Part shown: piece by piece, positions 3,880-33,053 of the stretch
Layout of the letters: the number at the start of each line of letters is the position of its first letter
Numbering within the stretch: position 1 is the first letter of the stretch
Sequence record: SRR31156797_3523
DNA length: 33,053 nucleotides
Direction: 5' to 3' (one strand)
Program-made: the position numbers and the translations under genes
Notes under the pieces: model-generated
What the model was told of the DNA's origin: nothing
The model's database searches: none
What the model saw: only the letters and a program-made list of their open reading frames with translations

Positions 3880-5133
3880 CTATTGTTCAATAGGATTACT
3901 CATTGCACCAAGCAGAAGTATTCCACTGGTTTCCTCATCAATAAGTGCAAATACAAATGATCGCTGAACCTTGAAGAAATCCTCATTATTATTATTAGCC
4001 CTGGTTATGTCAACTGGCATAATGTCAGATTCTACTAGCCCTGTTTCCTCAATTCTTATCTGTGCAGTCTGATAGAATTCACTCAGATATAAGTTCCTGC
4101 CTATGTTTTCTAAGCTGGCATTTTCAGCATCAAATATATCGACTGCTCCCATTGCCTTTAATTCATTTGACAGTTCCAAAGTACGAGGAGTAGAAAATGT
4201 TACCTTTGGTATATAGAGCCATTTCTCCACATCATAGGCTAGGGTTCTCCATAATATCAAATCCTCACCTGTGAATTTTTCTAAGAATTTTTCCAGTGTA
4301 TCGTCACCAGGCGGTATCAGAATTGCTAGAGTTGTCTGTCCGCCAGCAAGAGGCAGGAAGCCAACAGTAACATCTTCGCTTTCATAATATCCAATTTCCA
4401 TTTTACCTCTTAAGGTAGGTACTGCAATACTATCGCCTGCATCTGTTGTAAAGGGTAGTGTTCTGGTATTCGCTGTATTAAAAGCCATATCCCATATGCA
4501 CTCGACAGCACTTACTGAAAGCAGAAATGAATTGTAATCATGATTTATTGCATCTTCTCCAAAAACAGAGTCTATTCGTCCTGATGTGGCTTCTACAGCC
4601 CATTCGTTAATATCTGTTTCAAGTTCATCATTATCAAATTGAACAAAATCCAGATTCAGCTTGAAGTAGTCTTCCATTCGTACTGCAAAGTCCTCTCTGA
4701 TAGATGGTCCTTCATTGACGTATAATGAGAAACTATTGTCAAACCATACACCGTCCATCTGCAGTAGTTCCTGCATAACTGCGCTGGATGTTGATGTCAA
4801 AGAATTCGCATCGCCAAGATTCATATCCAGAGCAGTTTCTATCCCCTCCAAAGTACCATCTTGTGCACCTATTCCGAACATAGTAAGTGCGATACCAATC
4901 ATAATAGGATTGATAACGTAGTTACCTTCACCGCCTCTTACCTGCTTTAGTAGTGCAATAGAGAAGTCGTTATATGTAGTAAGGTCTACTGTATCTGTTA
5001 AAATAATTGGTTCGGGGGTAGGCGTTGCCTCAATTTCAGGCTGTGAGGAATTACAGCCTGATAGTATAGTACTAACTAGTATTATAAATATTAAAATAAT
5101 TGTTATAGTTGGTTTGTTTCTTGTATTTTTCAT
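3880..5133 (-). CDS. Serpin-family lipoprotein (degenerate hinge)
   Basis: Lipobox LSGC after a hydrophobic stretch. Serpin-like segments: NDFSIALLKQ, INEWAVEATSGRID, WDMAFNTANTRTLPF, LYIPK, LKAMGAVDIFD and C-terminal FKVQRSFVFALIDEETSGILLLGAMSNP. Confidence 0.85.
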   Translation of the reverse strand: MKNTRNKPTITIILIFIILVSTILSGCNSSQPEIEATPTPEPIILTDTVDLTTYNDFSIALLKQVRGGEGNYVINPIMIGIALTMFGIGAQDGTLEGIETALDMNLGDANSLTSTSSAVMQELLQMDGVWFDNSFSLYVNEGPSIREDFAVRMEDYFKLNLDFVQFDNDELETDINEWAVEATSGRIDSVFGEDAINHDYNSFLLSVSAVECIWDMAFNTANTRTLPFTTDAGDSIAVPTLRGKMEIGYYESEDVTVGFLPLAGGQTTLAILIPPGDDTLEKFLEKFTGEDLILWRTLAYDVEKWLYIPKVTFSTPRTLELSNELKAMGAVDIFDAENASLENIGRNLYLSEFYQTAQIRIEETGLVESDIMPVDITRANNNNEDFFKVQRSFVFALIDEETSGILLLGAMSNPIEQ

Positions 5134-11133: not shown

Positions 11134-12756
11134 ATGAGTTACAACAGAAAAAGTCCTAAAAGGCGATATTCGTCAAAGGAGTACAAGAAGCTCTATATCG
11201 CCGATAAGGATGAATTGGATGCAAAGAAAAAAGCAGAAGAGGAACGTTTGACTGAAGCCAGAACTTCTCTGATGGAGGAGGGCGGCTATGTAGACGGCTA
11301 TATCAAATCCCAAAGAAAGAAAAAGAGAAATGAACACCTAAAAAAATCCACAGACTTTGGAATAAAAATAGGATTTATTACTCTTAGTCTTGTGCTGGCT
11401 GTAATTGCGGTTATTACTCTAATACCAAAGAATGTAAGTGCAAAATATGTACAAGGTTATGAGGTACTGCTAAATAATACAGTACTTGGTGTTACTGATA
11501 ATGCTGAGCCAATCAGTAATGCTCTGGACGATATTCGTGAAGAATTCAAAAACGATTACAATATGAATGTGTTCGATGATACTACATTGGAATACAGACC
11601 CGTAATGATAGAGATGCAGTTTATCTGTCCACCTGAATATTTTGTTAAAATACTCAAAGAGTGTGTGGACGTAAAGGTAATGGCATGGGTAATTCAGGTT
11701 AATAATTCACCTGCAGCTGCTGTCAAAACAAAGGAAGAGGCAGAATCGGCTCTTGCAAGAGTTTTGGAGCCATTTGAAGATATACCTACAGACAGACAGA
11801 GAATAGAAATTGATTTTGTTGAGAATGTAGAAGTACTAGAAATGGCTATTGAGTATTCTCAGGTATCAGATGAGGAATATGCGTACAAGCTCCTACGATT
11901 TGGCGGAGATATTGATGAAAAACACCATACTGTTGTAAAGGGAGAGACATTATCTAAAATCAGCAAAACATATGGACTCAAAGTTGCTGACTTGCAAAAT
12001 GCTAATCCTGAACTTGCATCAACCAGTAAAATCTATCCTGGAGATGTATTGCTTATAGCCGAGACTAATTCCAGAGTGAATGTAAAATATATTGAAGTAG
12101 TCGACAGGGTTGAGTCAATGGATTATGAAACTGAAACAATAGATGATGATACGATGTATATAACTGAGACTATTGTTGTACAAGAAGGAGTAGAAGGTAC
12201 TCACGATATTAACGCAGAAATAACCTACATAAATGGCAGAGAGACTGAAGTAAATATAATCAGCGAGGTTATTATTACTCAGCCTGTCAATAAAGTAATC
12301 AGAAAGGGTACGAAGGAAGTACCAAGGATACAGGAATTAGCTGCTGAAGGTGATATGCCTATTCCACTAAAAAGCGGTTCATACAGAGTATCCTGTAAGT
12401 TTGGACCTCGTGATTTAGATATAGCAGGTGCATCAAAGTGGCATAAAGGGGTAGACCTTGCTGCTAATAAAGGAACACCAATCTATGCATCTATGTCTGG
12501 TACAGTAACTCACTCAGGTTCAGGTACAGGATATGGATTGTATATTAAGATAAATCACGGTGACGGTGTTGAAACAAGGTACGCTCACTGCTCTGAATTA
12601 CTTGTTAAAAAGGGTGATAAAGTAGATGCAGGAGACTTAATTGGATTAGTTGGGAATACAGGCATTTCTAGCGGTTCTCACCTTCATTTTGAGGTAAGAA
12701 TCAACGGTGTTGCTTATGACCCATTAGGCGAATATGAAGGTACTGCTCCATCATAA
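11134..12756 (+). CDS. LysM-G5-M23 peptidoglycan DD-endopeptidase (paralog 1)
   Basis: Basic N-terminus plus single TM; LysM HTVVKGETLSKISKTYGL; G5-like VVQEGVEG...PVNKVIRKGTK; M23 HKGVD and HLHFEVR. Confidence 0.9.
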   Translation: MSYNRKSPKRRYSSKEYKKLYIADKDELDAKKKAEEERLTEARTSLMEEGGYVDGYIKSQRKKKRNEHLKKSTDFGIKIGFITLSLVLAVIAVITLIPKNVSAKYVQGYEVLLNNTVLGVTDNAEPISNALDDIREEFKNDYNMNVFDDTTLEYRPVMIEMQFICPPEYFVKILKECVDVKVMAWVIQVNNSPAAAVKTKEEAESALARVLEPFEDIPTDRQRIEIDFVENVEVLEMAIEYSQVSDEEYAYKLLRFGGDIDEKHHTVVKGETLSKISKTYGLKVADLQNANPELASTSKIYPGDVLLIAETNSRVNVKYIEVVDRVESMDYETETIDDDTMYITETIVVQEGVEGTHDINAEITYINGRETEVNIISEVIITQPVNKVIRKGTKEVPRIQELAAEGDMPIPLKSGSYRVSCKFGPRDLDIAGASKWHKGVDLAANKGTPIYASMSGTVTHSGSGTGYGLYIKINHGDGVETRYAHCSELLVKKGDKVDAGDLIGLVGNTGISSGSHLHFEVRINGVAYDPLGEYEGTAPS

Positions 12757-12902
12757 AGGAGTTAACAAGAAATGTTAGCAAACAAGTAAAGCGATAAAGG
12801 ACAAAATAGCTGTGGTTCATTTCTAAAGAAATGGAATGAACTAAAAGTGGTTATGTGTAAAACACATATTTAATGATATGTTCATTATACAAGGAATTGT
12901 TT

Positions 12903-14465
12903 ATGCCAAAGAAAGATATAAAAAAAGATAGTTCTCGCAAAAGGATAGAATTCCCTAGTAAAGTAGTCAAAGTACCAGACAGCGAGAAAAAGAATATTAG
13001 ATTAAATACAGTTACTGAATTCTCTGAAAAAAAGGGAAAAGTGAAAAAAGATAGGTCTGAAAAGCAAAACGCCAGTGTATTAAAGAATTTGGACTACGGA
13101 AGAATAGGAATAGTTGTACTGCTGATAGCTGTAATTTTTTCCTTATTCACATTTGGTATTCCTTATGCGGTAAAAGCTCAGTATACTGATGCATTCGAGG
13201 TTTATTTGGATGAAGATACATGTATTGGTATTGTAGATAATATTGAAGAAATGGATGCAGTATATCAAAAGATATTTGATGATTTCAGTTCCTATTACGG
13301 CATGGATGTTCCAAAGGAATATGAATTGACTTATAAAGAAGTGCAGGTGCGCTCACTGAATATATTTCCTGTTGATCAGTATGACAGTATCTTAAGACAA
13401 AGCCTGGATGTAGGTGTTATGGCTTGGGCTATAATGGTCAATAATGCACCAGCTGCTGTACTTGCTACAGAAGAAGAAGCAACATGGGTATTAGAGCAGG
13501 TATTAGCACCCTATGAAGAGGATGCGGAATCAAAGCAAAGAACTGATATTCACTTTTTAGAAGACGTTCAAATAGTAAATACGTCTATTGAGTATAAATC
13601 TATAGTTGATCAGGAAACAGCACTGAGCCTGCTGAAATACGGTGAGGATGTAGAGATTAAGAGACATACAGTCGTTTCTGGTGAAACACTATACAGTATT
13701 GCGAAGAATTATAATTTGCGTGTCTCGGATATTATCAAAGCAAACCCTTGGCTTGAGCAGAATGACAAACTTTATAGGAAAGATGTATTGACAATAGCTA
13801 AGGTAAATAATCGGGTAAATGTTGTCTATACTGAGTACATTTCCAGAACTGAACAATTGGACTATGAAACCATTTATCTACAGGATGATTCAATGTATGA
13901 GACTGAGAGCAAAGTGCAGATAGAAGGCAAATACGGTGAACGTCAGATAACAGGAAATGCAACTTATATTAACGGTTACGAATCAGATGTAGAAGTGCTT
14001 ACTGAGAATATAGTATCAGAGGCTGTAGACAGAGTCGTTGTTGAGGGAACAATAGAAGTACCAAAGACGCTGAAACTAGCCCAGTCAGGTAATATGATGC
14101 TTCCATTGAAGTCATATACAATTACATCACCTTTTGGTAAAAGGAATACTGGAATCGATGGAGCATCTACATTTCACAATGGCGTGGACTTAGCGGCATC
14201 AAAAGGTACACCTATATATGCCAGTGCTGATGGTAAAGTCAAGTTTGCAGGCTCATCAGGAGGCTATGGTTTATTGGTAAAGATAACTCATGAAGGAAAT
14301 GTTGAGACAAGATATGGTCACTGCTCTCAATTGTTAGTTTCCAGCGGTCAGTACGTCGAGCAGGGTGATATTATTGCTTTGGTTGGTTCGACAGGAGTAT
14401 CCTCAGGTAATCATGTACACTTTGAAGTTCGAGTAAATGGAACACCTGTAAATCCAATTGATTAA
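12903..14465 (+). CDS. LysM-G5-M23 peptidoglycan DD-endopeptidase (paralog 2)
   Basis: Same architecture: LysM HTVVSGETLYSIAKNYNL, G5-like, M23 HNGVD and HVHFEVR; SD AAGGA upstream of ATG 12903. Confidence 0.9.
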   Translation: MPKKDIKKDSSRKRIEFPSKVVKVPDSEKKNIRLNTVTEFSEKKGKVKKDRSEKQNASVLKNLDYGRIGIVVLLIAVIFSLFTFGIPYAVKAQYTDAFEVYLDEDTCIGIVDNIEEMDAVYQKIFDDFSSYYGMDVPKEYELTYKEVQVRSLNIFPVDQYDSILRQSLDVGVMAWAIMVNNAPAAVLATEEEATWVLEQVLAPYEEDAESKQRTDIHFLEDVQIVNTSIEYKSIVDQETALSLLKYGEDVEIKRHTVVSGETLYSIAKNYNLRVSDIIKANPWLEQNDKLYRKDVLTIAKVNNRVNVVYTEYISRTEQLDYETIYLQDDSMYETESKVQIEGKYGERQITGNATYINGYESDVEVLTENIVSEAVDRVVVEGTIEVPKTLKLAQSGNMMLPLKSYTITSPFGKRNTGIDGASTFHNGVDLAASKGTPIYASADGKVKFAGSSGGYGLLVKITHEGNVETRYGHCSQLLVSSGQYVEQGDIIALVGSTGVSSGNHVHFEVRVNGTPVNPID

Positions 14466-17633: not shown

Positions 17634-18557
17634 TTATTTTACCCATTTAGCAAATTCCTCGTCATTTGCTAAGACTTTATGGTCATTGGATACAATTTTT
17701 AATTCCCTGTCAGCATAATCAGCTGTAGTTGCTGAATATTTTATTCTTACACGTCCTCTTTCATAATCAGGGTCTGGCAGAGGAATAGCTGACAGCAAGC
17801 TTTTTGTATACGGATGCTTTGGATTACGATAGATTTCGTTAGAATTACCAATTTCAACGATTTTACCCAAGTGCATAACAGCAATTCTGTCACTGATATA
17901 CTTAACCATGGATAAATCATGAGCAATAAACATATATGTCAAGCCAAGCTCTTTCTGTAGATTTTTCATTAGATTTACAACCTGTGCCTGGATAGATACG
18001 TCAAGAGCAGATATTGGCTCATCTGCTATAATAAAGTCTGGCTCTGTGATAAGCGCACGAGCAACACCAATACGCTGTCTTTGTCCACCAGAGAATTCGT
18101 GGGGATATCTGTTCGCATGCTCCTTGCTAAGACCAACTGTCTTTAGCATTTTGTATACACGTTCTTTGACTTCGCTCTTTGGCATACTCTTAAAATGGAT
18201 ATTCAAACCTTCAGCGATTATATCTTCTACCTTCATCCTTGGGTTTAGAGAAGCCATTGGATCTTGAAATATCATCTGCATTTTCTGGTTCAGTAATTGC
18301 TTTGAATCTTTGTTTAATTTATTTGATATATCTTGACCTTGGAATTCAATATATCCTGCAGTAGGCTTGTATAGTCTGATAAGGCTTCTTCCAGTTGTTG
18401 ATTTACCGCTTCCGCTCTCACCAACCAGACCAAAAACTTCACCTTTATACATTTCAAAAGATATATCATCAACAGCCTTTACTACGCTGCCTCTTTTCAT
18501 AGGAAAATATTGCTTTAATCCCTCTACTTTTAGAATTAATTCTTTATTTTTGCTCAT
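17634..18557 (-). CDS. oppF: Oligopeptide ABC transporter ATPase OppF
   Basis: GESGSGKST, IFQDPMASLNPR, RYPHEFSGGQRQRIG, DEPISALDVSIQAQV, PKHPYTKSLLSA. Confidence 0.95.
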   Translation of the reverse strand: MSKNKELILKVEGLKQYFPMKRGSVVKAVDDISFEMYKGEVFGLVGESGSGKSTTGRSLIRLYKPTAGYIEFQGQDISNKLNKDSKQLLNQKMQMIFQDPMASLNPRMKVEDIIAEGLNIHFKSMPKSEVKERVYKMLKTVGLSKEHANRYPHEFSGGQRQRIGVARALITEPDFIIADEPISALDVSIQAQVVNLMKNLQKELGLTYMFIAHDLSMVKYISDRIAVMHLGKIVEIGNSNEIYRNPKHPYTKSLLSAIPLPDPDYERGRVRIKYSATTADYADRELKIVSNDHKVLANDEEFAKWVK

Positions 18558-19596
18558 TATTACCCTCCTTAGCAGCTTTAAATTTCTTATTACGTCTCTG
18601 TATTGCTACAGGAGGCTGAACTTCTGGTGCATGCTCGTGGAGCAGCCAGGAAGCGACGTAATGAGTATCTGATATTTGGAAAAATGGAGGTTCCATCTCG
18701 AAGTCAATATCCATAGCATACTCGCTTCTTAATGCAAAAGCATCACCCTTTGGAGGTTCAAGTGCATTTGGAGGAGTACCAGGAATAGCATAAAGTTCGT
18801 CTTCTTCGTCCATATCTGGCATTGATGCCAGTAGACCCCATGTGTATGGATGCATTGGATTGTAAAATATTTCATTTACTGTACCTTTTTCAACTATTTT
18901 ACCAGCGTACATAACTGCAACTCTGTCAGCAACGTTTGCTACAACGCCCAGGTCATGGGTAATGAAGATAACTGATGTATTTGTTTTCTTTTGAAGTTCA
19001 TCTATGAGTTCCAAAATTTGAGCTTGAATTGTTACGTCAAGAGCAGTTGTAGGCTCATCGCATATCAATATCTTTGGATTGCATGCGAGAGCAATAGCTA
19101 TGACTATTCTTTGACGCATACCGCCTGAGAATTGATGAGGAAATTGTTTGGCTCGTTTTTTGGGATTGTCTATTCCAACCATTTCAATGAGTTCGTAGAC
19201 TCTTTTCATAGCGTCTTTTTTTGACAAATCATTATGAAGCAGTACTGCCTCTAATACTTGTTTTCCAATATTCATAGTAGGATTCAAGCTGGAGATAGGG
19301 TCTTGGAATATCATAGCGATTTCACCGCCCCTGTATTTGTATATCTCTTTGTCACTCATCTTTGCAAGGTCTTCATCACCATACATAATAGAGCCGCCTG
19401 TAATCTTACCGTTTTCGCCTAATAAACCCATTACGGATTTTATTGTTACTGATTTACCACTTCCGCTTTCGCCAACGATAGCAAGAGTCTCTCCCTTGTA
19501 CACATCAAGGTCTACTCCTCGCACAGCATATACCGTACCGCCTTCTGTAGTAAATTCTACTTTTAAATCCCTTATTTCTAAAATATTATTATTCAT
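18544..19596 (-). CDS. oppD: Oligopeptide ABC transporter ATPase OppD
   Basis: GESGSGKSVT, FPHQFSGGMRQR, DEPTTALDVTIQAQIL, HPYTWGLLASMP. Confidence 0.95.
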   Translation of the reverse strand: MNNNILEIRDLKVEFTTEGGTVYAVRGVDLDVYKGETLAIVGESGSGKSVTIKSVMGLLGENGKITGGSIMYGDEDLAKMSDKEIYKYRGGEIAMIFQDPISSLNPTMNIGKQVLEAVLLHNDLSKKDAMKRVYELIEMVGIDNPKKRAKQFPHQFSGGMRQRIVIAIALACNPKILICDEPTTALDVTIQAQILELIDELQKKTNTSVIFITHDLGVVANVADRVAVMYAGKIVEKGTVNEIFYNPMHPYTWGLLASMPDMDEEDELYAIPGTPPNALEPPKGDAFALRSEYAMDIDFEMEPPFFQISDTHYVASWLLHEHAPEVQPPVAIQRRNKKFKAAKEGNNEQK

Positions 19597-19608
19597 TGCT
19601 CATACCCC

Positions 19609-20736
19609 CTATTTCATCTTTGGATCTAATGCATCACGCAGACCATTAGAAAATAGGTTGATTGCTAACATTAATACACAAATTAAAATAGTTGGGATAA
19701 ACAACATATATGGACTTGTCTGCATAAAGTCATAACCGTCAGTACAAAGTGTTCCAATTGATGGAATTGGCTTTGGCATTCCCAATCCGATAAAGGCTAG
19801 GAAAGCTTCGTAGAAAATAGCAGATGGAATAGTGAATGTTATCATAACTATCATTTGACCGATAACGTTTGGAAGAAGATGTGTAAAGATTAATCTGCCG
19901 TGGGAAGCACCCAAAGTTCTGGATGCAAGTACAAATTCCTGATCCTTTAGCTTTAGAAACTGCGAGCGAACGACACGTGCTGCACTCATCCAGCCTGTAA
20001 CGCCGACGGCTATTGAAATAGCTCCTAAACCAGGTTCCATAAACATAAGTAATAAGCATAAAATAACAAGAGATGGTATACCACCGAAGATTTCACTGAA
20101 TCTCATCATTAGTGTATCAATTCTAGTACCGCCGAAATAGCCAGCAATACCGCCGTATACAACACCAATTGTAAGGTCTAGGAATGCTGCAAATAATCCA
20201 ATGTATAGTGATATACGTGCTCCATACCAAACCCTTGTCCATAGGTCACGACCTAAGTCGTCAGTTCCGAACCAGAAATATTTGTCTTGAATATCTTTTA
20301 ATCCATACACATCAACTTTTACAGTGTAATATGATTGACCTGCTTCATCAAATTCCTTAATTACTTCATAATACTGTAAGTCTTCGTCGTCTATTCTTTC
20401 ATATTCTTTTACAGAAATATCACGATTGACAGTACCATTAAATATACCTAGCTTTTCTAATCCCTTTATTCTAGGAGGAATTTTTGTAGAAAGCGATTTG
20501 TTGTCCATCACTCTTTCCTGGAAATCGTATTCATTCACCATAGGTCCTATAATTGACATTATAATAATTAGTATAATGACAAATAATGATGCCATTGCTA
20601 TTTTATTCTTCCATAATCTGCGTCTGGCATCTTTCCAGAAGCTGACACTCTCACCGGCTATTGCTTCAGCCATTTCAAATGTATTCTTTCTAATTTTAAA
20701 TAGATTTTTATCTAATTTTCGTATTTCAACTGACAT
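19609..20736 (-). CDS. oppC: Oligopeptide ABC transporter permease OppC
   Basis: SFWKDARRRLWKNK, FGTDDLGRDLWTRVWYGARISL, EFVLASRTLGA, NLFSNGLRDALDP. Confidence 0.95.
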   Translation of the reverse strand: MSVEIRKLDKNLFKIRKNTFEMAEAIAGESVSFWKDARRRLWKNKIAMASLFVIILIIIMSIIGPMVNEYDFQERVMDNKSLSTKIPPRIKGLEKLGIFNGTVNRDISVKEYERIDDEDLQYYEVIKEFDEAGQSYYTVKVDVYGLKDIQDKYFWFGTDDLGRDLWTRVWYGARISLYIGLFAAFLDLTIGVVYGGIAGYFGGTRIDTLMMRFSEIFGGIPSLVILCLLLMFMEPGLGAISIAVGVTGWMSAARVVRSQFLKLKDQEFVLASRTLGASHGRLIFTHLLPNVIGQMIVMITFTIPSAIFYEAFLAFIGLGMPKPIPSIGTLCTDGYDFMQTSPYMLFIPTILICVLMLAINLFSNGLRDALDPKMK

Positions 20737-21698
20737 TACTTGTTACCTCCTGCTAAACGTATTCTTGGGTCGATTACACCATACAGCAGGTCAACTATTA
20801 GTATAACTGTTACCAGCATAAAGCTGTATGCAAATGAAATACCTAAAATAAGGAAGTAATCTCTGGTTGCAATAGCGTTAATTAACATTTGTGCAAGACC
20901 AGGTGCACCGAAAAATCTCTCAATAACTGTAGAACCAGATATAAGCATAACTGTCATAGGGCCGACAACTGTAATAACAGGTATCATAGCATTTCTGAAT
21001 GCGTGCTTATAAATAACCTTTTTTTTCTTTAAGCCTTTTGCCTTTGCTAGCATAATATAATCTGAGTTTAGAACCTCAACTAATTCGCTTCGCATATAGC
21101 GCATTGTAGTAGAGATTACGTAAACTGATAAAGAAAATGACGGTAAAATCATTGAATAGATATGATCCCAGTAAGTTATGCCCTTGTTTGCATTAACAGA
21201 CTGATATAAAAATGGGAATATATCAAGTTTATAACTTAGATAGTACTGCATCAAAGCAGCCAAAACAAATGATGGTATTGATACACCGATAACTGCTAAA
21301 ATAGTAGTGGCGTGATCGGCTATGCCATTCTTTCTGATGGCAGCAATTGTGCCAAGAATAATTCCCAGCGGAAGTCCCAATAACAGTGCGATGCTTCCTA
21401 TCTGCACGGTAGTCGGTAGCTTTTGTAGTATTAGTTCTGTAACATTTCTATTTCTAAATTTGAAGGAAATACCAAAGTCAAATTTGGTTACAATTCCCTT
21501 AACATACCTGAAATACTGTAAATACACAGGTGCGTTTAGTCCATATAGATTTTCGATTTTTTCCAGCTGAGCATCTGTCATTTTTGGATTGTTAAATGGT
21601 GATCCTGGCAGTACCTGCAGCAATAAAAATGTGATTGTTACAATTAAGAAAAGGGTGATGACCATCATACCCAGTCTTTTTAAAGTATATCGTAACAT
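20736..21698 (-). CDS. oppB: Oligopeptide ABC transporter permease OppB
   Basis: MLRYTLKRL...LPGSPF, DYIMLAKAKGL, HAFRNAMIPV, VDLLYGVIDPRIR. Confidence 0.95.
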   Translation of the reverse strand: MLRYTLKRLGMMVITLFLIVTITFLLLQVLPGSPFNNPKMTDAQLEKIENLYGLNAPVYLQYFRYVKGIVTKFDFGISFKFRNRNVTELILQKLPTTVQIGSIALLLGLPLGIILGTIAAIRKNGIADHATTILAVIGVSIPSFVLAALMQYYLSYKLDIFPFLYQSVNANKGITYWDHIYSMILPSFSLSVYVISTTMRYMRSELVEVLNSDYIMLAKAKGLKKKKVIYKHAFRNAMIPVITVVGPMTVMLISGSTVIERFFGAPGLAQMLINAIATRDYFLILGISFAYSFMLVTVILIVDLLYGVIDPRIRLAGGNK

Positions 21699-22121
21699 AA
21701 AAAGTGCGTCTCTCCTTTGTTAAATTCTCCGTACATAAAACAACATTTATCCTCATTAAATGCTTTTTTTATTAGTGCATTTATTAATATGTTTAACTAT
21801 AATACCTAGTTTTTTAATGTGATTTGTTATATAATATACCTAGTAATTCTACATCAAACAATGTAAAATTGCAAACTAATATCTACATAATTTCATTTAT
21901 TGTTAACATTTGAAAACCTAGTAATTTAGCACTTTAAAGCAAAAAGCATTAATATACACAATTAAATTATTTTAGTGCGTATTAATGCTAAAATCAGGAT
22001 ATTTCAAAAAGTATTTAATACGGTATAATACTTCTGCTTTTATAATAATTAAGTAAATACAATCGAACATTAAATGATAATAAATCAATATTTCATCTAA
22101 TAATTGTAGTAGTGTATGTGC

Positions 22122-22162
22122 AAAAAAATATGGCAAGGAGTGTATATCGACATCCTTGCCAT
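22122..22162 (-). terminator. Rho-independent terminator after oppA
   Basis: Minus strand: ATGGCAAGGA...TCCTTGCCAT-A-TTTTTTT. Confidence 0.85.
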
Positions 22163-22207
22163 TGTTTGTTTATTTAATTGTTAATTAATTACTTAAATGA
22201 GTTATTT

Positions 22208-23887
22208 TTAATAATCAGCAATGTTAAACATTAGATAGAAACATACTGTTTCGCCGAAAGGTGATGCATCGTCACGATCTTTATATTTAGCAACGTTTTC
22301 GCCTGACAGACCTACTCTGTCGATTTCACCGTCTAAGTACATTTGAACAGCTGTGTTGTTTTCAACACCTGTGATGTATCTTGTGTAAATTTCATCAAGA
22401 TTAACAACGTCAGCGTCCCAATACTCATCGTTCTTTAGGCAAGTTGTATGTGAAGTTAATTCCCACTCGTTTAGATAGAATGGACCGTTGAACAGCATTG
22501 TATCAACAGTTTTACCATATAGTTCAGAAGTAACTTCTGTTACGAATGCTTCGTTAACTGGGAAGAATGCTGGGAATGCCATCAATGCCTTGAATAGCTC
22601 AGATTCTTTTGCAACTACTTTGAATGTATAGTCATCAACTGCTTCATAGCTTTCGATACCTAGTAGAGGCAGAGTAGCTAGGAATGAATATTGTGCAGCT
22701 AATTCTTCTGATTGTAGACGATTCCATGAATATACATAGTCGTGAGCTGTTACGTTGCCGTATACTGTGCCGTCAGCTTTTACCCAAACTGCATCTTCAC
22801 GTAGTTTGAAAGTATATGCTCCGTCAGCATATTCGAATGATTCAGCTCCGCCTAATACTGGAAGGTCACCGTCTGATAAGCGCATTAAGCCTTCACAAAC
22901 GTTGTTTAGCATTTCAAATGATAGAGTATCTGTTGTTGCGTTTTGGTCTAAATCAGGAATATCTGTGTTTTCTAATAAACTTAGAACTTTTCTTCCGTCG
23001 TCGCCTGCAGCTTTGTCTGTCCACTTATATGTATAGTCAGGACCGAAACCATGTTTGTACATATCAGTAATATCTTCAGCTATAAGACTTACGCCACCTC
23101 TTTGATATAGTGGAGCGATAGGGTATTCAGTAGTAACTAGCTCTTCAGCAGCTACCATAGCAGCCCATACTTCGTCTGGGTCTGTAGAAGTTTGTGCTGT
23201 TTCGATTAATGCATCATACTCAGCGTTTGACCAGTGACCTTCATTATATTCACCATCTGTTACCCACATGTCTAAGAATGTTAGAGCATTTGGATAGTCA
23301 GGACCCCAACCAGCAAAGTTAAGATCGAAGTCACCAGCTTGTGAAAGCTCTAGCTTTTCAGCAAATGGTAGAGCTTTGATTTCAACTGTTAAACCTTCTA
23401 GATTTCTTTCAAGTTCTTCCTTGATGTGCTCACCGATTTTACCTGCTGAATCTGAGTCATAGTTTAGTAATTCGATTACAGCTGTTTCAAATCCTAGTTC
23501 TTCCTTAGCTGCTGCCCATAGTTCAGCTGCTTCTGCTGGATCATATGTTGGAGCTTCAGCAATAGCGTCACGGAAATCAACACCTTCGTAGTAAGTGAAT
23601 CCAACTGGTACAAAGCTGTCTGAAGCTAATGAACCGTTGTCACCTAAGATTTCTACGATGATGAACTCTTTGTCATATCCGATAGCGATAGCTTTACGAG
23701 CATCAACACTCTTGAACAGTACGTCAGCACCGATCTCAACTGAATCTGCTGATACTTCCTCTGTCTCAGCTGGAGCTTCTGTTGCTTCTGAAGCAGTAGT
23801 TTCTTCTGGCTCATCAGTTGTAGTACAACCAGCAAACATACCCAGAACAAGAACAAGAACTAATAGCATTGTTAATAATTTTTTCAT
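22208..23887 (-). CDS. oppA: Oligopeptide-binding lipoprotein OppA (SBP family 5), circularly permuted motif order
   Basis: Lipobox FAGC; SD AGGAGGA. The recognisable family-5 motifs are present (RKAIAIGYDK, GWGPDY, WSNAEYD, PIAPLYQ, NNVCEGL, YTFKLR, VTAHDYVYSW, NGPFYL, KNDEYWD, YLMFN), but the two halves are swapped. Confidence 0.9.
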   Translation of the reverse strand: MKKLLTMLLVLVLVLGMFAGCTTTDEPEETTASEATEAPAETEEVSADSVEIGADVLFKSVDARKAIAIGYDKEFIIVEILGDNGSLASDSFVPVGFTYYEGVDFRDAIAEAPTYDPAEAAELWAAAKEELGFETAVIELLNYDSDSAGKIGEHIKEELERNLEGLTVEIKALPFAEKLELSQAGDFDLNFAGWGPDYPNALTFLDMWVTDGEYNEGHWSNAEYDALIETAQTSTDPDEVWAAMVAAEELVTTEYPIAPLYQRGGVSLIAEDITDMYKHGFGPDYTYKWTDKAAGDDGRKVLSLLENTDIPDLDQNATTDTLSFEMLNNVCEGLMRLSDGDLPVLGGAESFEYADGAYTFKLREDAVWVKADGTVYGNVTAHDYVYSWNRLQSEELAAQYSFLATLPLLGIESYEAVDDYTFKVVAKESELFKALMAFPAFFPVNEAFVTEVTSELYGKTVDTMLFNGPFYLNEWELTSHTTCLKNDEYWDADVVNLDEIYTRYITGVENNTAVQMYLDGEIDRVGLSGENVAKYKDRDDASPFGETVCFYLMFNIADY

Positions 23888-23948
23888 TGTGTCCGTTTCC
23901 TCCTAAAGAAATATTATGTGTGTTTATTTATACACTACTTAATTACCT

Positions 23949-23977
23949 ATTATAGCACGTACATTAAATAGAGTAAA
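23949..23977 (-). promoter_or_regulatory. SigA-type promoter of oppA
   Basis: Minus strand TTTACT-17 bp-TATAAT with extended TG (TGCTATAAT). Confidence 0.65.
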
Positions 23978-24234: not shown

Positions 24235-24642
24235 ATGATAAAAAGAATTGCTATACACGTAGGTATTTCTTTAGTTATTTGCTTGATTTTACAAGTGACC
24301 GGAATTATAAGTCACCTAGAATTTTATGAGAAATTATTTATTGCTGCACTTTTGTATTTGTTGGCAGGAGGATATATATTTCTTTGTAGTGCAGGATATT
24401 TTGCAATACAGAAATATTCATTTCATAAGGTTTCATCCAAGCTTCCATTTCTCTCTAAATTGTTTTTGGGTGCAAATGCAAGAAATCAAGAAATAGGTGA
24501 TGAGAAAGAAACTGCAAAAGATTTTGTAGACTATAGAGATAATTTCATGAAAAAAACTTCAATGGCTGACTGCGTACCGTTGCTGTTGACCTTCACAATA
24601 CTTACTTCTATCTCGGTTGCATGGGGTATGCTAGCAGTATAG
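24235..24642 (+). CDS. Small membrane protein, DUF3899-like
   Basis: Three hydrophobic segments; LFIAALLYLLAGG...GYF...YSFHK resembles DUF3899, a family often found beside opp operons. Family assignment is from recall only. Confidence 0.55.
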   Translation: MIKRIAIHVGISLVICLILQVTGIISHLEFYEKLFIAALLYLLAGGYIFLCSAGYFAIQKYSFHKVSSKLPFLSKLFLGANARNQEIGDEKETAKDFVDYRDNFMKKTSMADCVPLLLTFTILTSISVAWGMLAV

Positions 24643-31554: not shown

Positions 31555-33053
31555 ATGAAAAAATTCTTATTTACCTTTTTTCTTTTTGTAGTCATTATGG
31601 TCTGCATGCCTGTTGCTGCTCTGGCAGATGATGTAGGAAGTCTTAGCAGTCCGATTGACTTATCTACTATACCAGATTTTTTTGCTGTTGACAGCGGTGA
31701 TACAGCATATGTCACAACTCCTGCTGGAGTAACTGTAAAAAACAAAAGTATCCGTGTATATGAGGGAGCAACTTTAGTGCTTTGTGATGCTGACATTTCA
31801 TACATTGAAAAAGGTTGGCGTCAAGGTGCAGCAATTACTATGTATGATAATTCATCATTAAAATTAGTAGGGACAAATAATGTTACCGCATCCCAAGGCA
31901 CTTCAAGTTATACATATGCTATAGTTGCAGGAAGCTCTGTTACCATATCTGACTACGAGGCAGACAGTACAGTTGGCGAATTGGTAATAGATACTACTCC
32001 ATATGATAGTGTTTACGGAATATACATATATTTTGGTAGTCTTACTTTAGAAAGCGGTATTATTAATGTAAACAGCGGATATGGAGGGATAGCCGGGGCT
32101 AATTCTTCTACACTAACAGTAAATGGAGGTGTTATTACTGCAAATGGAGGAGTTGGTCCAATGGGGGGAAGCATTGGCATTCAAAGTGAAACGATTATAA
32201 TAAATGGAGGTATAGTGACCGGAAACGGCGGAGATTATCCAGGAGGGGGGGCGGTAACGGCATAGGCGGTAAATCAGTAACTATAAATGGAGGAAGTATA
32301 ATTGCAAATGGAGGGAATGGATATTACGGGTCATATGGAATATCTAGTCGGACTTTGGGTATTAACATTAGCGGTGGTGTAGTAGCTGCAAACGGATCCA
32401 AAGGAGGCATTTACGGAAAAGGTACAATCTCAGGTGGAGAAGTGACTGCTACAGGATTGAATGGTTTATATACAAGAGGTGATACTTTTAACATTACCGG
32501 AGGAGAAATTACCCTTATCGGCACTAATGGCGGTGTATACTCAGAGTATGATGGTGCTGCATTGAATATCAGTGATGGTGCTGTTGTATATATAGAAGGC
32601 GGTATAAGTGACTTCAGTTCAACGTATGATGACAGTTGCATTATAACAATCAGCGGTGAAGATACAATTGTACTTACAAAAGACAGTACAGGCGTTATAG
32701 ACTCTGAATTCCATATGACTTTAAACGATAGTATAGCGTTTACAAATGATACAACACAAATAAATAATACTCTCCTAAATACATTCGGTAATAGTTCACC
32801 GTATTCTAATGCGGGAGGGCTATATTATGCTGGCAATGTTGAATTTGTAACATATAATATAGGTGCTCACGGCAGCACAAACGATGTAACATACGAAAGC
32901 GTTGAAACCAATGGTTCACCAAATGCAGTACCTGATGTAATTGCAGACGATGGATACGTGTTGATAGGCTGGTATAAAGATAGCGATACAACTCTTATTA
33001 CAGATTTGTCAACTCAGATAATCACAGCTAATACCTTGTTTACAGCACAATAT
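31555..33053 (+). CDS. Large secreted/surface protein with Gly-rich beta-helix-like repeats and an InlB B-repeat (Flg_new)-like domain; frameshifted at G7 (32245-32251), 3'-truncated
   Basis: Signal peptide ending ...PVAALA; repeats (V/I)NGGx(I/V)xAxG. After the G-run the shifted frame (from 32250) stays open to the window end, continues the same repeats, and ends VTYNIGAHG...DDGYVLIGWY...TLFTAQY. Confidence 0.8.

Follow-up and report, generated by a model that had tools for sequence, protein, structure and literature searches.

A very probably genuine natural circular permutant of the OppA-type substrate-binding lipoproteins, and its polyphyletic relatives in Bacillota

The window considered here, i.e., the whole stretch of 33,053 nucleotides from sequence record SRR31156797_3523, carries an OppA-type gene whose product seems to be put together in the wrong order, and the question raised by this locus is whether the gene encodes a natural circular permutant of a peptide-binding lipoprotein. 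Few bacterial receptors have been studied as thoroughly as OppA and its relatives, which are textbook examples of the Venus-flytrap mechanism. A first-pass annotation, made from the letters of the sequence, had proposed the permutation for an open reading frame at 22208-23887. The frame exists, and its strand is here corrected to minus: it runs from 23887 to 22208, with the ATG at 23887 and the TAA at 22210-22208, and encodes 559 amino acids (aa); translation of the plus strand across 22208..23887 meets many stops. Taken together, our results indicate that the product, called the query below, is very probably a genuine, functional and naturally circularly permuted substrate-binding lipoprotein of the OppA type (family 5, cluster C).

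The order of the matches to canonical proteins carries this reading. When the query was compared with the chains of the Protein Data Bank (PDB) by phmmer, residues 52-290 matched residues 282-524 of the OppA of Listeria monocytogenes (5kzt_A) with an independent E-value of 1.7e-48, and residues 296-555 matched 5kzt_A 11-278 with an independent E-value of 1.1e-41. The identical pattern of two stretches in swapped order was found against B. anthracis OppA (6npo_A) and B. subtilis DppE (8ay0_A). The top solved relatives by score were 5kzt (312 bits) and 6npo (309 bits), and all solved cluster C proteins matched here have the canonical order. A canonical profile of 551 positions, built from 17 canonical relatives, placed query residues 57-292 at positions 312-549 and residues 297-557 at positions 43-309; therefore, each core position is present once, the cut at 309/312 is clean and the joint is about 10 residues long. 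The query thus departs from the canonical collinear chain, as profile positions 312-549 come before 43-309, and has what defines a permutant, namely two homologous blocks that are swapped, core positions that occur once each and old termini that are linked by 10 residues. Membership in the family is clear, with Pfam PF00496 (SBP_bac_5) scoring 184.9 bits against a cut-off of 32.4 (E-value 3.2e-54) over two stretches, which is how a scan with this hidden Markov model had been predicted to behave. The swapped order is far beyond chance, and the two exchanged alignments to canonical OppA that had also been predicted were recovered by phmmer against the PDB, by BLAST against 120 relatives, by the profile and by structure.

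The protein opens with a lipoprotein signal peptide, MKKLLTMLLVLVLVLGMFAG, followed by Cys21 (aa 1-21, 23825..23887, minus strand), and the lipobox MFAG-C was read from the translation. On the same strand there follow an acidic, low-complexity tether rich in Thr, Glu and Ala (aa 22-51, 23735..23824), the canonical C-terminal half, which comprises lobe 2 (domain III) and the last lobe-1 segment up to DYTYKW (aa 52-290, 23018..23734), the joint DKAAGDDGRK of the old C-terminus with the old N-terminus (aa 291-300, 22988..23017) and the canonical N-terminal half with Ia, II and Ib (aa 301-559, 22211..22987). Both halves were delimited by the matches to 5kzt_A, to the profile and to the structural model, and the joint is the gap between the aligned stretches. 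The segment LFKSVDARKAIAIGYDK begins at aa 57 and DYTYKW occupies aa 284-289; VLSLLENTDIPDLD stands downstream of the joint, and the chain ends as FYLMFNIADY, with the stop four residues past FYLMFN. Those motifs of the first-pass annotation that were checked, including the Cys21 lipobox and the acidic linker, are present where it had placed them, and the translation locates the joint exactly as it had claimed. The length and the sequence of the joint vary among collinear homologues. The sub-domain labels Ia, II, Ib, III and Ic follow the description of Salmonella OppA, and the match of Salmonella OppA (1ola_A) residues 1-272 to residues 289-548 of the model agrees with them.

A single-sequence AlphaFold model was unusable, with a predicted local distance difference test (pLDDT) score of 38.4. 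With the 27-row alignment A1, which holds 26 collinear homologues, the AlphaFold run that had been recommended gave a confident model (pLDDT 88.1, predicted template modelling score 0.82), in which disorder was confined to residues 1-46 (pLDDT <50) and the joint had a pLDDT of about 88-95. Each half of this model superposes on a canonical OppA by VIA-align: residues 55-295 on 5kzt_A 315-559 (Z 28.1, rmsd (root-mean-square deviation) 2.9, 233 residues), and residues 297-549 on B. subtilis OppA 8arn_A 17-280 (Z 26.0, rmsd 1.8, 241 residues). The sequential comparison by Foldseek aligned about 262 columns with OppAs, i.e., about half of the model, with template modelling scores of 0.39-0.43, because the halves superpose separately and in swapped order, as is expected of a permutant. 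Residue 1 of 1ola_A falls at model residue 289 and the C-terminal end of 5kzt at model residue 295; therefore, the old termini meet at the joint.

The position of the cut can be read against the hinge of the fold. PMC10924461 describes cluster C binding proteins as two lobes connected by two short bridging segments; for YejA it assigns residues 1-286 and 540-579 to lobe 1 and residues 287-539 to lobe 2, with hinge segments at 282-287 and 540-542. The query starts where lobe 2 begins and ends a few residues past the FYLxFN strand, from which the chain would pass into the first bridge; therefore, its new termini replace the first crossover from lobe 1 to lobe 2. The sole remaining covalent link of the lobes is the second crossover, from lobe 2 to the lobe-1 tail, and the lipid tether enters lobe 2 (domain III) beside the hinge, instead of domain Ia. 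Sequence and structure alignments thus bear out the proposal that the old termini were fused and the chain reopened right after FYLxFN at the first crossover, and the anchor has indeed moved to the other lobe. As compared to the canonical Gram-positive OppAs (5kzt; 6npo; B. subtilis OppA 8arn/8are; DppE 8ay0), the query has the same PF00496 family, the same three-domain, two-lobe blocks, the same lipoprotein anchoring and the same linkage to oppBCDF, with 37-39% identity per half in structural alignments. It differs in that the order is III-Ic-Ia-II-Ib with one crossover and a tether at lobe 2, whereas canonical proteins are Ia-II-Ib-III-Ic with two crossovers and a tether at Ia. The chain runs from the signal peptide and Cys21 through an acidic tether of about 30 residues, III, Ic and the 10-residue joint into Ia-II-Ib; the old ends, which are spatial neighbours, are fused, and the new ends are situated at the first inter-lobe crossover. 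In the mechanism we propose, the protein would still adopt the usual bilobed Venus-flytrap fold, bind an oligopeptide in the cleft and deliver it to the OppBCDF encoded downstream, with one covalent lobe crossover instead of two and with a membrane tether that would pull on lobe 2 near the hinge, not on domain Ia.

Far from being a singular oddity, the query belongs to a set of permutants that is both sizeable and polyphyletic. Among its best 120 database matches, 26 were collinear with it (89-100% of its length, 38-66% identity), 10 had a different rotation and 84 were canonical, so that the search for full-length collinear homologues called for at the outset was successful. In alignment A1 the mean column identity is 58% and 39 columns are invariant, among them W194, D197 and Y198 of GWGPDY, and its rows share the aligned Cys-bearing signal peptide and a stop right after FYLxFN. 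The A1 profile was also searched against 1.84 billion cluster representatives (50% identity), and the canonical-profile order test found the query layout in 28 of the 150 best rows; the exact sequence of the query was absent from a collection of 15 billion entries. When layouts were assigned by canonical-profile order in a pooled set of 266 proteins including the query, 197 were canonical, 52 had the query layout (type A), 10 were of type B, one each was of type C (P0155, profile 388-549 then 43-390) and type D (P0192, profile 209-548 then 43-206), and five were long in-frame tandem fusions. The cut of type A is tight, with the start of the first block confined to profile positions 300-315 and the end of the last block to 305-314, and a lipobox-like motif was found by a simple pattern in 48 of the 52. 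Named members come from an unclassified Fusibacter (three paralogues) and from metagenome-assembled genomes (MAGs) of Lachnospirales, Peptostreptococcaceae and Erysipelotrichales, and some clusters lie on large contigs, which measure 3.59 Mb for type A and 5.1 Mb for type B. A scan of genome contigs with short peptide patterns gave 32 loci, all canonical; such patterns favour conserved motifs, and the count is uninformative on the rarity of permutants.

The other rotations differ from type A in where the chain is opened. Type B proteins have about 660 aa; after a lipoprotein signal and a tether they cover profile positions of about 155-550 and then about 44-155. In the canonical protein P0012, residues 141-191 correspond to the C-terminal tail of type B and residues 196-260 to the N-terminal region of type B (E-values 1e-13 to 1e-21), which places the type B cut within the domain-II insertion. 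Judged from these sequence matches, type B derives from a 650-aa canonical type that carries a domain-II insertion of about 80 residues. Canonical OppAs of this 650-aa type (Turicibacter sanguinis P0038 and Vallitalea pronyensis P0076) and type B (the P0006 group) belong to the 54-member clade of the query in both half-trees described below. Type B resembles the query in being a lipoprotein with fused old termini next to oppBCDF, and differs from it in its length and in its cut, which lies in the insertion (profile ~155) and not at the hinge. Types C and D likewise start with lipoprotein signals. P0155 comes from Anaerorhabdus sp. and is represented by several NCBI accessions, and P0192 is equivalent to the query with the last ~107 residues moved to the front, as its residues 40-146 share 53% identity with query residues 452-558 and its residues 155-549 share 42% with 57-448.

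Did the type A layout arise once or repeatedly? Stretches matching the canonical profile were aligned to it and merged per protein into 506 columns. In a FastTree phylogeny of 261 proteins, type A was scattered among canonical proteins, and type B stayed together, its 10 members forming one clade (support 0.993) inside the canonical clade of 650-aa proteins. An IQ-TREE analysis (LG+C20 with posterior mean site frequencies (PMSF), Shimodaira-Hasegawa-like approximate likelihood ratio test) of 72 rows, comprising all isolated permutants and their neighbours and leaving out the other 189 of the 261, needed nine changes of the type A label, eight of which are forced by branches supported at 95% or more. 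On this tree the query is joined first by P0001 and P0002 (99) and then by type D (97), within a 16-row clade (97) of ten type A proteins, four canonical ones, one type C and one type D. Forcing all type A rows into one clade cost 1060.8 units of log likelihood (iqtree2, LG+G4, free vs constrained), with an approximately unbiased test p-value of 1e-65, and a single origin of the type A layout is rejected. Permuted and canonical proteins can be very close to each other: permuted P0174 shares 70-71% identity with canonical P0224 in both halves, and the pairs P0243/P0200 and P0210/P0222 share 55-56% and 56-59%, respectively; the query and the type A members P0158, P0003 and P0046 share only 41-47%. 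When the halves were analysed in separate trees, the query fell both times in the same clade of 16 members and the same clade of 54; therefore, one gene was rotated, and the query is no chimera of distant paralogues. The hinge-cut layout and three other cut points have thus evolved or been reversed several times among related Bacillota OppAs, and the tree has no power to tell gains from reversions.

The same pattern could be produced if the permutation had happened once or twice only and the polyphyly came from gene conversion or recombination between co-resident paralogues, or from reversions, an explanation that we consider unlikely overall. Adjacent paralogues are frequent, and conversion is mechanistically possible since the halves are homologous regardless of their order; gain and loss, as said, are not separable on the tree. 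Permuted oppA genes were observed in tandem pairs on two metagenome contigs (L036:3-2110 and L039:1-1881), and the longest contig is 100,147 bases for each of the three Fusibacter paralogues (P0008, P0011 and P0022); from the adjacent permuted paralogues it follows that the permuted form has itself been duplicated. Against conversion, however, the sister pairs are alike along both whole halves (70 and 71% for P0174/P0224, 56 and 55% for P0243/P0200) with no mosaic pattern, the half-trees concur on the placement of the query, and type B keeps the 80-residue insertion of its canonical 650-aa sisters split over its new ends, which requires a separate event there. Gene conversion is therefore a possible partial alternative, and the sister pairs and the type B insertion argue against it as the main cause. 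Returning to repeated change of the layout, one may tentatively go further: with at least four cut points in Bacillota OppAs and a hinge cut gained or lost some eight or more times, topology might be non-neutral and might have been selected repeatedly in tethered receptors through the opening and closing dynamics or the geometry of docking to OppBC, although we hold this broader suggestion to be doubtful on balance.

In the classical model of permutation, a gene is duplicated in tandem and in frame, after which the first N-part and the last C-part are lost. For the query, an in-frame tandem fusion of oppA would have been trimmed of its first N-half and its last C-half, as the first-pass annotation had also envisaged. 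Proteins in which two to five complete family-5 units are fused in frame, as this route requires, are present in the wider family (P0239, 1037 aa; P0154, 1238 aa; P0263, 1152 aa; P0121, 2704 aa; P0148, 2843 aa), but these are distant relatives and none was found close to the query. P0121 has an N-terminal region of about 600 aa that is not of the substrate-binding type, and P0148 has a regulator- or ATPase-like start. Relics of the lost halves, or a second family-5 or OppA-like gene, were found nowhere in the window, and this absence fits an old event because the nearest relative is 66% identical. Two further arrangements were observed elsewhere: a Chlamydiia MAG locus (L030:1898-5708) has three matches to the N-half about 1.5 kb apart on one strand, and on one strand of a metagenome contig (L092:2386-10287) four or more canonical oppA-like genes follow each other, an array of the type able to yield fusions.

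The neighbourhood of the gene points to an ordinary transport function. The permuted gene is the sole PF00496 gene in the window, and a complete set of permease genes lies directly downstream on the same strand: oppB (20736..21698, minus strand; PF00528, PF19300), oppC (19609..20736, minus strand; PF00528, PF12911 OppC_N), oppD (18544..19596, minus strand; PF00005, PF08352 oligo_HPY) and oppF (17634..18557, minus strand; PF00005, PF08352). The family alignment also recovered 79 metagenome loci, and 13 of them code for a permuted protein (10 type-A-like and three type-B-like); oppBCDF is adjacent in six of these 13, and the other seven are mostly on contigs of at most 5.5 kb that are free of permease genes within the contig. 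The gene also has its own signals. A Shine-Dalgarno sequence, AGGAGG, was read 11 nt 5' of the ATG (23899..23904, minus strand), and an intrinsic terminator, a hairpin followed by U7, lies at 22120..22162 (minus strand) with a folding energy of -17.4 kcal/mol and a z-score of -4.96; none of 200 shuffles was as good, and a simple terminator scan had missed this hairpin. A promoter-like TTTACT-17-TATAAT with a TG extension (23949..23977, minus strand) matches the consensus at 10 of 12 positions, but 14 sites of this kind occur in the region where 11.3 +/- 3.8 would be expected, with no enrichment over shuffles, which makes it weak evidence. The earlier argument for a functional gene thus holds for the intact frame, the Shine-Dalgarno sequence, the terminator, the fold, the homologues and oppBCDF, while the "clean promoter" it had invoked is a consensus match without enrichment. 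Most likely, as sequence and gene order suggest, the permuted protein would be the peptide receptor of the adjacent OppBCDF importer, tethered via the other lobe, with the cleft unchanged and one hinge crossover cut, and its function is likely to be ordinary.

Several observations weigh against this reading and have to be set beside it. The terminator and an AT-rich spacer separate the permuted gene from oppB, which bears on its co-expression with the permease; the spacer (21699-22207) is about 430-500 nt long with ~22% GC and several minus-strand promoter-like hexamers, and oppBCDF may have its own promoter and regulation. The NCBIfam OppA equivalogs all scored far below their cut-offs (PRK15104, 103.7 bits vs 947); therefore, the query is not an equivalog of E. 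coli OppA, although the test is biased against permutants because a collinear profile is unable to score them in full. Equivalence of the whole fold is that of a predicted model with each half superposed apart (Z 26-28). A search among longer relatives for a close tandem-fusion intermediate gave two kinase-fused proteins with 22-23% identity, which is weak evidence. D197 of GWGPDY is invariant in 27 of 27 A1 rows and may correspond to the Asp that binds the alpha-amino group of the ligand in OppA and DppA. For DppA, PMC12136057 describes D436 as binding the ligand and the scoop loop.

These points leave some room for a real permuted binding protein with another role, such as a receptor of pheromone or signal peptides, a binder of another ligand (metal chelate, opine or glutathione) or an orphan that serves another transporter. 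The gene's own terminator and the long spacer before oppB would suit such a protein, and weaker family-5 matches include PrgZ (169 bits), NikA, GsiB and opine binders. However, the best solved relatives, 5kzt and 6npo, are oligopeptide-binding OppAs, the window has no second PF00496 gene, the query stands directly upstream of oppBCDF, and a like adjacency recurs in six of the 13 permuted loci, so that a different role appears quite improbable to us and the receptor of the adjacent OppBCDF is preferred.

An artefact of assembly or gene calling, with a frame pieced together from two tandem oppA genes or excised from a tandem double OppA, is hardly credible. Tandem oppA paralogues are common in relatives (loci L040, L047, L060 and L092), and the contigs of an independent sequencing run, X1, which contain 0.49 of the window words in seven pieces that are all identical to the window, leave 22996-23187, including the joint, and other parts uncovered. 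Among the runs listed, X1 was the one DNA match and none was of RNA. The proposed check of both boundaries in independent sequence was accordingly positive for the signal-peptide boundary, where the X1 piece 23704-23973 runs from the promoter through the signal peptide and the tether into the first part of the old C-half with 0 differences, and left the joint uncovered. On the other side stand the 26 collinear full-length homologues with 38-66% identity, which come from many sources including some Mb-sized contigs, a frame bounded by a signal peptide with lipobox and by a stop with terminator, and the lack of any further OppA-like sequence or relic in the window; the artefact reading is effectively refuted. 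That the gene might be the leftover of a rearranged oppA, without function and in decay, has nothing in its favour besides the unusual order and is equally implausible in view of the intact 559-aa frame, the confident model, the 39 invariant columns over 27 diverged sequences and the retained signal peptide, Shine-Dalgarno sequence and terminator.

Natural permutation of a binding lipoprotein has a precedent in another fold. Brautigam et al. (2016) described TpMglB-2 (Tp0684) of T. pallidum, a glucose-binding, circularly permuted ABC ligand-binding lipoprotein that keeps binding and closure, and in the excerpted text (PMC4990184) the authors named the arrangement 'Type Ic / Cluster Bc', noted that it occurs mostly in organisms with tethered binding proteins and considered tethering as a possible driver. 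TpMglB-2 differs from the query in having a cluster B type I sugar-binding fold and another cut position, with no sequence relation to family 5, and alternative cut points or repeated origins are not described in that excerpt of PMC4990184. In full-text literature searches, no paper on a naturally permuted OppA, DppA or other family-5 protein was found, though supplements might list cases, which agrees with the first-pass annotation knowing of no described example. Binding-protein terms are absent from the main text of the CIRPIN survey of circular permutation (2026, PMC13552848), its supplements lying outside this scope, and the GisABCD paper (PMC10355420) makes no mention of permutation. The conserved set of natural OppA permutants is thus apparently undescribed.

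The window contains several further genes. A bacterial serpin of 417 aa (3880-5133, minus strand; PF00079, E-value 1.8e-56) lies between truA and a rubrerythrin gene, and serpins are uncommon in bacteria. Two tandem paralogues at 11134-12756 and 12873-14465 (plus strand), both LysM-G5-M23 peptidases, are followed by a gene with a SpoIID domain, and this group looks like a cell-wall remodelling or sporulation cluster. SpoIID among the neighbouring genes and the low GC content suggest that the DNA comes from a spore-forming member of the Bacillota. Open reading frames without a Pfam match are found at 24235-24642 (plus strand; 135 aa, hydrophobic and membrane-like) and at 31555-32265 (plus strand; 236 aa), and an Rfam scan of the window gave no match.

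The permuted OppAs are of interest for protein evolution, for the mechanics of hinge and tether and for annotation. A natural variant that is cut at the hinge and tethered through lobe 2 is a ready test of what the hinge strands do in closure and what the tether does in delivery. The recurrent origins, a permuted and a canonical protein with 70% identity and four cut points are clean material on natural permutation and on the cut sites that a fold tolerates. Collinear profiles under-score the permutants and sequential structure searches see half of the fold, so annotation errors are likely in this family. The natural cut sites also point to tolerated sites of insertion or permutation for the design of biosensors.

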